Source: Octopus vulgaris
Lineage: Eukaryota
Assembly (NCBI GenBank): GCA_951406725.2
Contig: OX597827.1
Span: forward strand, 50,344,001 to 50,408,000
Direction: 5' to 3'
DNA: 64,000 nt
A model generated the notes under the pieces. It made no database searches, was not told where the DNA came from, and saw only the letters and a program-made list of their open reading frames with translations. Below, piece after piece: positions 8,797-10,062 of the stretch. Numbering within the stretch: the first letter of the stretch is position 1; every line of letters begins with the position of its first letter. Both the position numbers and the translations under genes were made by a program.

Positions 8797-10062
8797 CAGG
8801 TCACTGCCTGAAACCTTGGGGTTAGTAGCCCGCTCTATTAACCACTACGCCATATGCCCGTGGACAATTATGGAGTGAATTTTTAGGGCTTACAAATCAA
8901 ATATTTTCGTATCCTTTCTTAATACCGGTTCCCATATGCTATTCATACTCGGTCTACTTAGCAGGTTGCTGCTGCTTCTTTTAGTTTTCATATTTTCCAG
9001 TGGTGTTCTCTGTCTATTATTTTAACTTCATCCCACAGTGGGAGGTGGTCTCCATTTTTCCGTACATGATCAGCTATACCCGATTTATCAATATCTCCGC
9101 GTGTCACAGCTTTGCAATGTTTCTCTACCCTTATTTTGAGGGGGTGGTATGTTTCACTTTTGTATAACCTACCACTGTTGCATGGGATGGGGCACACGCA
9201 GTTTTTTTGTCATATTCTCTTTTATTGGTGGTTTTACCCGAAGGAGATATTTGCGAAGTGTTGTATTACTCCTGAATACTGTGCTGATGTTACATGGGCC
9301 GCGTATCTTTTGTATCTTTTCGGAGAGGCCTTTCACATAGGGTAGACAGACTGTAGACAGTTTATTGGTTTCATCCCCTCTTTTCGTCATAATTGGAGTA
9401 GATAGTATGTTTTGGGGATTGTTGTTACTTAATAGATTGTTACTGAGCTTGATCATTTCTTCGTGCTGGGTATCACGATCGCTGCTTATATTCTTCGCTC
9501 GATGTTTTAGCTACTGAGCAATCCATCTCTTTACACTGTACGGATGGTAGGAATTGAAGTTAATGTATCGTCCAGTGAAGGTCGGCTTACGATATCCGGA
9601 TGTCCTGAATCCATACTTGGTGCGTGTTATTTATACGTCCAGGAATGCTAGCTGATTGTCTTTTTCCTTTTCTATTGTGAACTGTATGGATAGCTCTATT
9701 GAGTTCACATGATCTAACAGCACTTGGACATCTTCCTGGTGGGGCTTGAGAATTTGGCTTTAGGATCAACTGCACTAAAACCAACACTACGGTTACGATA
9801 TGTTGATGACACTTTTATACTACAGTTCAATTTCAGGCAGTGACCTGACTAAGAATAAGAATAGCAATAAGAATAATAACATCGAAAACAACCATAGGAA
9901 TGAGAACCTAGGTTCGAAATTTCCCCAAGACACCTGATAAAGGCTGGAGGTTATATCAACCGAAACGTTGTGTCAACAACAGACAAGATGAGGACAAATA
10001 CCCGTCAAATGTAAATAATGTATATAATGTACATAATTCCTCATCTCTTAAATATAGAACAG
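8797..10062 (-). mobile_element. Penelope-like element (RT C-terminus + GIY-YIG) with inverted terminal repeat
   Basis: Minus strand: PHQEDVQVLLDHVNSI..QFTIEKE..LAFLDV, YRKPTFTGRYINFNSYHP, CLPYVKGLSEKI, IPCNSGRLYKSET..LKIRVEKH..SGIADH; RYVDDTFIL segment inverted at 9746-9823; inverted HHR-bearing terminal repeat at ~9825-10062. Confidence 0.88.
9929..9974 (+). ncRNA. Minimal type I hammerhead ribozyme motif (family A), G8>A variant
   Basis: GACAC-CTGATAA-AGGCTG..CAACC-GAAAC-GTT-GTGTC; 5-bp stem I and palindromic AACGTT stem III; core substitution suggests this copy is inactive. Confidence 0.65.

Follow-up and report, generated by a model that had tools for sequence, protein, structure and literature searches.

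A Penelope-type retrotransposon family of Octopus vulgaris with a tRNA-derived head in its pseudo-LTR

Does a tRNA-like segment that directly follows the open reading frame (ORF) of a Penelope-like element (PLE) belong to the element itself, and could it drive transcription? The question was raised by positions 8797-10062 of the window, the 64,000-nt stretch of the Octopus vulgaris genome (GCA_951406725.2, contig OX597827.1) that we analyzed. A first-pass annotation had described this locus as a coding Penelope element whose terminal repeat carries a tRNA-like RNA polymerase III (Pol III) promoter, a microsatellite and a hammerhead, and had proposed that the tRNA-like segment belongs to the pseudo-LTR instead of being a SINE that was inserted there by chance. 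All the motifs quoted in it were found in place.

The window copy and its layout

We found that the locus is a decayed, 5'-truncated copy of a Penelope/Poseidon-type element, and a dead member of an autonomous retrotransposon family (Table 1). The family has an 835-codon ORF for a reverse transcriptase (RT) and a GIY-YIG endonuclease, while the window ORF is a decayed fragment with several stops and frameshifts. The ORF remnant was 91% identical to the family majority sequence at the nucleotide level and the whole copy 89-91% identical, and Pfam matched none of the three ORF pieces of the window element. On the minus strand the stop codon is followed by the spacer, the head and the (ATA)n-type array in the order first described, and the module restarts inverted on the plus strand at the other end of the ORF (9824-10062), from the B box onward.

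Table 1. Features of the Penelope-type copy and the adjoining LINE fragment in the window
Feature	Position	Strand	Basis
Unrelated LINE 3' fragment adjoining the (AAT)n array	6988-8389	-	398-aa ORF at 7193-8389; weak zf-RVT match (E 7e-4), below the cut-off
Expanded (AAT/AAC)n array, 407 nt, 135.7 units, inside the pseudo-LTR	8390-8796	-	TRF
tRNA-derived head of the 3' pseudo-LTR, +1 at 8859, end at about 8797	8797-8859	-	Comparison with family consensus
ORF stop TAA (8892-8890) and 30-nt spacer ending in TGTCCAC	8860-8892	-	Sequence
ORF remnant: RT thumb, linker and C-terminal GIY-YIG-type endonuclease; aa 542-835 of 835	8893-9753	-	tblastn/blastn against family majority sequence
RT segment of 76 nt with YVDD motif (LRYVDDTFIL), flipped strand, part of the inverted 5' arm	9746-9821	+	Sequence
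Inverted partial pseudo-LTR: 3' third of the head from the B box on, and degenerate (AAT)n	9824-9879	+	Sequence
Linker with ORF start codon ATG at 9900-9902	9880-9928	+	Majority ORF of 835 codons starts here
Minimal type I hammerhead motif in ORF codons 10-25, predicted cut after 9969	9929-9974	+	Manual match to the description in PMC4209133
Tail: N-terminal coding sequence, ending at the distal of two preferred family end points	9975-10062 (end approximate)	+	3'-end pile-ups

The 3' head of the window copy has an intact A box (TGGCGTAGTGG, 8852-8842, minus strand) and has lost its B box to a 12-nt deletion. The inverted arm, on the other hand, has a B-box-like motif (GTTCAATTTC, 9825-9834, plus strand) and lacks the A box. 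The locus therefore has no intact A+B promoter, and the annotated A/B-box promoter stands only at the level of the family, where the head is tRNA-like and may serve Pol III. A second B-box-like motif, GGTTCGAAATTTCC, occurs at 9911-9924 (plus strand) in the linker, within the first codons of the ORF, and locus L002 has a deletion between the two B-box-like motifs. The end of the spacer, TGTCCAC, forms a short palindrome with the start of the head. Residues 1-53 of the majority ORF map to 9900-10067 on the plus strand. The hammerhead annotated in the terminal repeat is present as a minimal motif, but its core is mutated in this copy (CUGAUAA, G8 to A) and stem II has a mismatch.

The 76-nt RT segment that is inverted in the window copy is collinear with the ORF in 9 of 12 long copies. 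We conclude that the window copy is a head-to-head insertion, in which the inverted arm ends at the long site (see below) and, through a template switch from the B box to the RT region, joined the main arm. No target site duplication (TSD) was detected for this copy beyond chance 9-10-mers. An (AAT)n microsatellite follows the head in other copies too and lies within the pseudo-LTR in all of them. The rest of the 3' pseudo-LTR is missing from the window copy, and the array is followed by the LINE fragment, which we take to be Dong/R4-like. Pieces of this kind were often seen within the pseudo-LTR array, which they split (window 6988-8389, L118:1920-2972, L005, L020 and L034), suggesting that the Penelope element supplies target sites for another retrotransposon. 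The same repeat occurs elsewhere in the window without an ORF, at 47580-48107 (plus strand), where its first base is head +1 and a further insertion interrupts its microsatellite, and as an inverted pair at 20535-20906.

The ORF-to-head junction and the origin of the head

We examined the junction between the ORF and the head over the genomic copies (2.8 Gb, 227 contigs), as the first-pass annotation had suggested. A search with a junction query, which is biased toward the junction, gave 3,126 candidates; 39 of the 40 that were scored extended more than 40 nt into the head, and the junction was present in all the 29 other loci that were fetched. A protein-only search, unbiased for the junction, gave 150 matches. 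The head directly followed the ORF end in 18 of the 20 loci fetched from this search (17/19 without the window copy), while the two others lose the ORF earlier, at 587 and 728 of 885 nt. All 18 protein-anchored copies in which the ORF extends to its end had the head. Among 12 longer loci, four of which were shared with the protein-anchored set, 11 had the junction and one stopped earlier; one long copy, L130, passes into unrelated DNA immediately before the ORF stop. The junction was also bridged in contigs of three other organisms (X13, X15 and X18). The ORF-to-tRNA-head junction is a trait of the family.

A search for the junction between the tail and the ORF gave 30 loci. The head, (AAT)n, linker, hammerhead, tail and ORF follow one another in L145, L168 and L171, with unrelated DNA preceding the head, and L154 is a true tandem junction in which the ORF end, the head and the ORF start succeed each other in direct orientation. 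The heads linked to an ORF (65) and the solo heads (60) share one consensus. Because of the 18/20 junctions, the copies in which the repeat runs directly into the ORF start and this common consensus, the data support the proposal that the tRNA-like head belongs to the pseudo-LTR rather than to a SINE inserted at the locus by chance.

The majority ORF, obtained from an alignment of 87 segments, has 835 codons; it starts at the linker ATG, passes through the hammerhead and the tail and stops 28 nt before the next head. The family unit consists of a head with A and B boxes, (AAT)n, the ATG, the hammerhead motif, the ORF, the 28-nt spacer and the next head, and about 100-150 nt separate the head from the start codon downstream. 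The repeat continues in frame into the ORF, which places the head directly before the coding region, where a promoter would lie. The majority ORF was 57% identical to the database protein P0003 over aa 11-831, including the peptide encoded by the hammerhead. No relatives were found in viral contigs. The copies had at most 95.9% identity to the majority ORF (median 92.6%, 84 hits), so that, to judge from the copies seen, the family appears old. In 1 Mb sampled systematically as 100 x 10 kb we counted 18 clusters, of which 11 had a head and 3 had any ORF 3' end; from this we estimate about 50,000 loci (30,000-80,000), mostly repeat-only. Short, internally deleted tandem units of the repeat and 120-235 nt of the ORF start, which are retrozyme-like, were seen in L148/L170, L161, L164, L166 and L167.

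Judged by its predicted structure, a single ORF with an RT followed by a C-terminal GIY-YIG endonuclease, the family is a member of the C-terminal endonuclease-positive (EN+) PLEs. Pfam recognized RVT_1 in 11 and GIY-YIG in 1 of 12 aligned proteins of relatives, and a GIY-YIG-like core could be aligned across all 12. The endonuclease contains a CCHH motif, VYSIPCSCGRLYKGET, with two cysteines between GIY and YIG and then two histidines, and no extra CX2-5CxxC linker finger was seen by eye in the family endonuclease. This putative motif, together with the lack of a linker finger, fits the Penelope/Poseidon clade as defined in the part of PMC8557442 consulted. At the family level the repeats show the partial tandems, the inverted 5' copy, the tail at one end and the TSDs of PLE pseudo-LTRs. 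A tRNA-derived head with A and B boxes at tRNA spacing, as in SINE2 elements, is likewise found at the family level, and in neither head of the window copy. A SINE2 is, however, a non-coding unit distinct from its autonomous partner, while the unit here is the partner's own pseudo-LTR and contains the first ~50 codons of the family ORF. A TRIMp3 of the Helenus type, with two true LTRs, a PBS and a PPT and no ORF, was rejected, as the present element is coding and has pseudo-LTRs and variable TSDs of 10-17 bp.

ARAGORN recognized none of 29 heads and no tRNA gene in the window, and Rfam matched neither the head nor the hammerhead in the window or the copies; a functional tRNA gene was thus rejected. 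On the other hand, a sequence-only profile built from 12 host tRNA genes matched 17/17 head-anchored and 7/12 protein-anchored loci (E 4e-7 to 7e-3), while the damaged window head gave no match. The consensus head keeps 20 of the 22 invariant positions of host tRNAs and has canonical A and B boxes at tRNA spacing, and the cloverleaf stems are not kept. By these features the head is of the SINE type, with the boxes retained and the cloverleaf lost. The best match of the consensus head among nine sequences tried was the SINE-like head at window position 61583 (52 identities, z 9.3), followed by tRNA-Arg (47-49 identities, z 8.6-8.9); as source isotypes, Arg and Ala scored alike in a sample of 7 or 8. 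The repeat at 61583 is a candidate donor, and the family probably acquired its head from a tRNA-derived SINE in a single event. No tRNA head was found at the ORF end of distant relatives among 80 metagenome loci (31-48% identical), and the three tRNA-head matches there were all separate SINE-like insertions. tRNA-headed SINE-like repeats other than the element occur in the window at 6625, 18004, 49228, 53475, 61583 and 5829.

The head as a putative Pol III promoter

We determined where the copies begin in a sample of 90 loci collected via the sequence downstream of the microsatellite, of which 87 remained after removal of three self-hits. No head was present within 900 nt in 31 of these, and 56 reached the head. 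Of the latter, 13 ended inside the head (+12 to +56), 30 at -7 to +9, five folded back at the head start (judged by eye) and eight ran 15-190 nt into the ORF end, so that 35/56 begin at the first bases of the head (30 plain and 5 fold-back). The per-base stop rate was ~15 times higher at the head boundary than inside the head. As a rough measure, contig depth rose ~6-fold or more at head +1 in runs of three other organisms. Since the end repeat begins with a tRNA-like sequence at the point where most copies begin, Pol III likely transcribes at least the short copies, and we give this reading a probability of about two in three. The captured head at the start of the pseudo-LTR would then be an internal Pol III promoter, and the 5' ends suggest that transcription likely starts a few bases upstream of it. 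Uncapped Pol III RNA would translate poorly. That the whole coding unit is under Pol III is a possibility that we hold only tentatively. No pile-up of transcription starts was seen in three unstranded RNA-seq runs, in which the reads were mostly read-through.

Runs of four T (T4) were looked for in the consensus sequences. The repeat consensus has none, and the 2,508-nt ORF consensus also has none where 2.9-4.9 were expected (P 0.033, 0.023 and 0.0036 under three nulls). Only 1 of 20 related PLE ORFs from metagenome contigs was T4-free, with a median of 3.2 per kb. The signal is modest: G4 runs are absent from the ORF consensus as well, local Dong/R4-like LINE pieces have 0 and 1 T4 in ~1.1 kb each, and the closest metagenome relative (L367, best segment 48%) is T4-free over 1,419 nt and has a pyrimidine-rich pseudo-LTR with no tRNA head. 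These three observations weaken the evidence from T4 depletion.

A short palindrome, TGCCC-AC-GGGCA, lies across the 5' boundary and allows the cDNA to snap back, which could also create the 5' pile-up. The head might be a fossil passenger from a tRNA or SINE, fused once into the pseudo-LTR of a master element and copied along, with transcription by Pol II or host read-through. Many copies fold back exactly at the palindrome before the head, as this would predict, and the T4 controls are imperfect. Known pseudo-LTR promoters are of the Pol II type, internal and with a 5'-UTR intron (as far as described in the part of PMC8557442 consulted). The solo copies have no subfamily markers relative to the ORF-linked heads; independent SINE-like masters are therefore not supported, which also agrees with a passenger. 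We nevertheless consider a passenger less likely. At many ends between +1 and +9 the element adjoins unique or distant sequence and does not fold back, the native palindrome has only 4-5 bp, and both boxes are canonical though the stems have gone. In addition, C56 of the B box is kept in 92% of the 60 solo heads and in 63% of the 65 ORF-linked heads (p 0.0002, 78 positions tested), a comparison confounded by the choice of solo copies as high-scoring.

A distinct tRNA SINE family, whose 3' end was acquired from a Penelope pseudo-LTR and which often adjoins the coding element, would explain why most loci are repeat-only, with an ORF 3' end in just 3 of the 18 clusters of the 1-Mb sample, and why the head most resembles another SINE head of the window. 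It is very improbable and largely refuted by the 18/18 protein-anchored copies that have the head where the ORF reaches its end, by the identical consensus of solo and ORF-linked heads and by the heads in direct orientation ahead of the ORF start; a coding copy with a head-less repeat was never seen. A chance SINE insertion beside a Penelope fragment, for which nothing but the high SINE density of the genome speaks, has next to no probability and is refuted by the same junction in 29/29 other fetched and 18/20 protein-anchored loci and in the contigs of three other organisms.

Insertion geometry, known relatives and the hammerhead

At the other end of the unit, the 3' ends accumulate at two points, body positions ~150 and ~175, which lie ~129 and ~154 nt downstream of the ATG. 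These points resemble, by analogy, the two internal RT start sites of the anole element PAc described in vitro (PMC11167929, consulted in part). Among 112 head-to-head inverted pairs, 48 had a TSD of 10-17 bp and all 48 paired a long with a short end, while none of the 15 long-long and 8 short-short pairs had one; the chance rate with shuffled flanks was 2%. This pairing fits nicking and priming on both strands with one cDNA per start site, and gives genomic support for the two-strand, two-site priming seen in vitro for PAc. By that analogy, the element protein likely introduces one nick into each target strand, at a distance of 10-17 nt, and a cDNA would be primed at each of two internal start sites, both located in the first ~160 coding bases. 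The products would be head-to-head insertions in which a long end is paired with a short one, which is the geometry that we observed. The ~300-nt solo repeat would act as a SINE-like parasite of its own parent, since every solo repeat carries the promoter boxes and both start sites.

SINEs are parasites of LINEs. If the present reading is true, a coding PLE with a Pol III head merges both roles, and a single repeat serves as promoter, ORF start, ribozyme and self-made SINE. The family would allow the control of a protein-coding mobile element by Pol III to be tested, and Penelope sequence makes up part of the large 'SINE' fraction of octopus genomes. Octopus SINEs OK, OR1 and OR2 were reportedly described by Ohshima and Okada in 1994, and the short form of the repeat may already be catalogued as a SINE or carry a database name. 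The consulted parts of three papers on octopus repeats (PMC13282606, PMC8967140 and PMC6962438) do not mention a tRNA-headed PLE. The arrangement had been called one not recognized as standard, and in the openly searchable full-text literature no PLE was found whose pseudo-LTR carries Pol III boxes or a head derived from a tRNA.

The family has much in common with PAc of Anolis and other Penelope/Poseidon EN+ PLEs as described in the consulted parts of PMC11167929 and PMC8557442: a single ORF with RT and then a C-terminal GIY-YIG, a pseudo-LTR arising from partial tandems, an ORF that starts at the hammerhead, inverted 5' copies, two 3' end points in the first coding bases and a tail at one end only. 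The tail is ~25 nt in the octopus family and 30-40 nt in the described PLEs, and those descriptions mention no tRNA-derived head or Pol III boxes. The new feature relative to the known C-terminal EN+ PLEs is thus the tRNA-derived head in the pseudo-LTR of a coding element. With the TRIMp3 elements Cassandra, Helenus and Ajax the family would share a Pol III promoter derived from a small RNA within a terminal repeat, which is proposed to have arisen in TRIMp3 by SINE insertion into the repeat (PMC10886601, consulted in part, as for the points that follow). TRIMp3s are, however, non-autonomous LTR elements, whose autonomous partners are argued to need Pol II, whereas the octopus family is a PLE with the head in the coding element's own repeat; in the literature consulted for comparison, Pol III heads in terminal repeats came only from non-autonomous TRIMs.

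The SINE-like repeats SM-alpha and Sj-alpha of Schistosoma are, together with TRIMp3, analogues of the octopus arrangement. In the consulted part of a review (PMC6765202) these are non-coding tandem repeats for which no autonomous partner is named, while the octopus module, which contains a minimal hammerhead, makes up the pseudo-LTR of a coding PLE and the start of its ORF. Non-LTR retrozymes are also short, hammerhead-bearing derivatives of PLE pseudo-LTRs, comparable to the tandem units of L148, L161, L166 and L167, and no tRNA head or Pol III promoter is described for them in the consulted parts of bioRxiv 10.64898/2026.07.22.740005 and PMC7229834. RTE-1_DAn and related LINEs are coding non-LTR elements with a tRNA-like segment, and belong to the RTE clade and not to the PLEs (PMC5786205, consulted in part).

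The family consensus of the hammerhead has the full core, a helix II of 6 bp, a helix I of 5 bp and a palindromic AC-GU helix III, and the core was intact in 32 of 78 full-length motifs. It is a predicted ribozyme of the minimal PLE type as described in the consulted part of PMC4209133. A pile-up of 5' ends at the predicted cut site was only weak, with two starts at position 92 and three at 93. Of 295 copies, 30 had lost 3 nt at this site (body positions 88-92; window 9966-9970), and 46/295 had some deletion starting at body positions 86-96. The cut-site deletion could be a scar of cleavage and rejoining, slippage in the GTTGTGTT repeat or the mark of a subfamily; a neighbouring short repeat near the cut site also attracts deletions.
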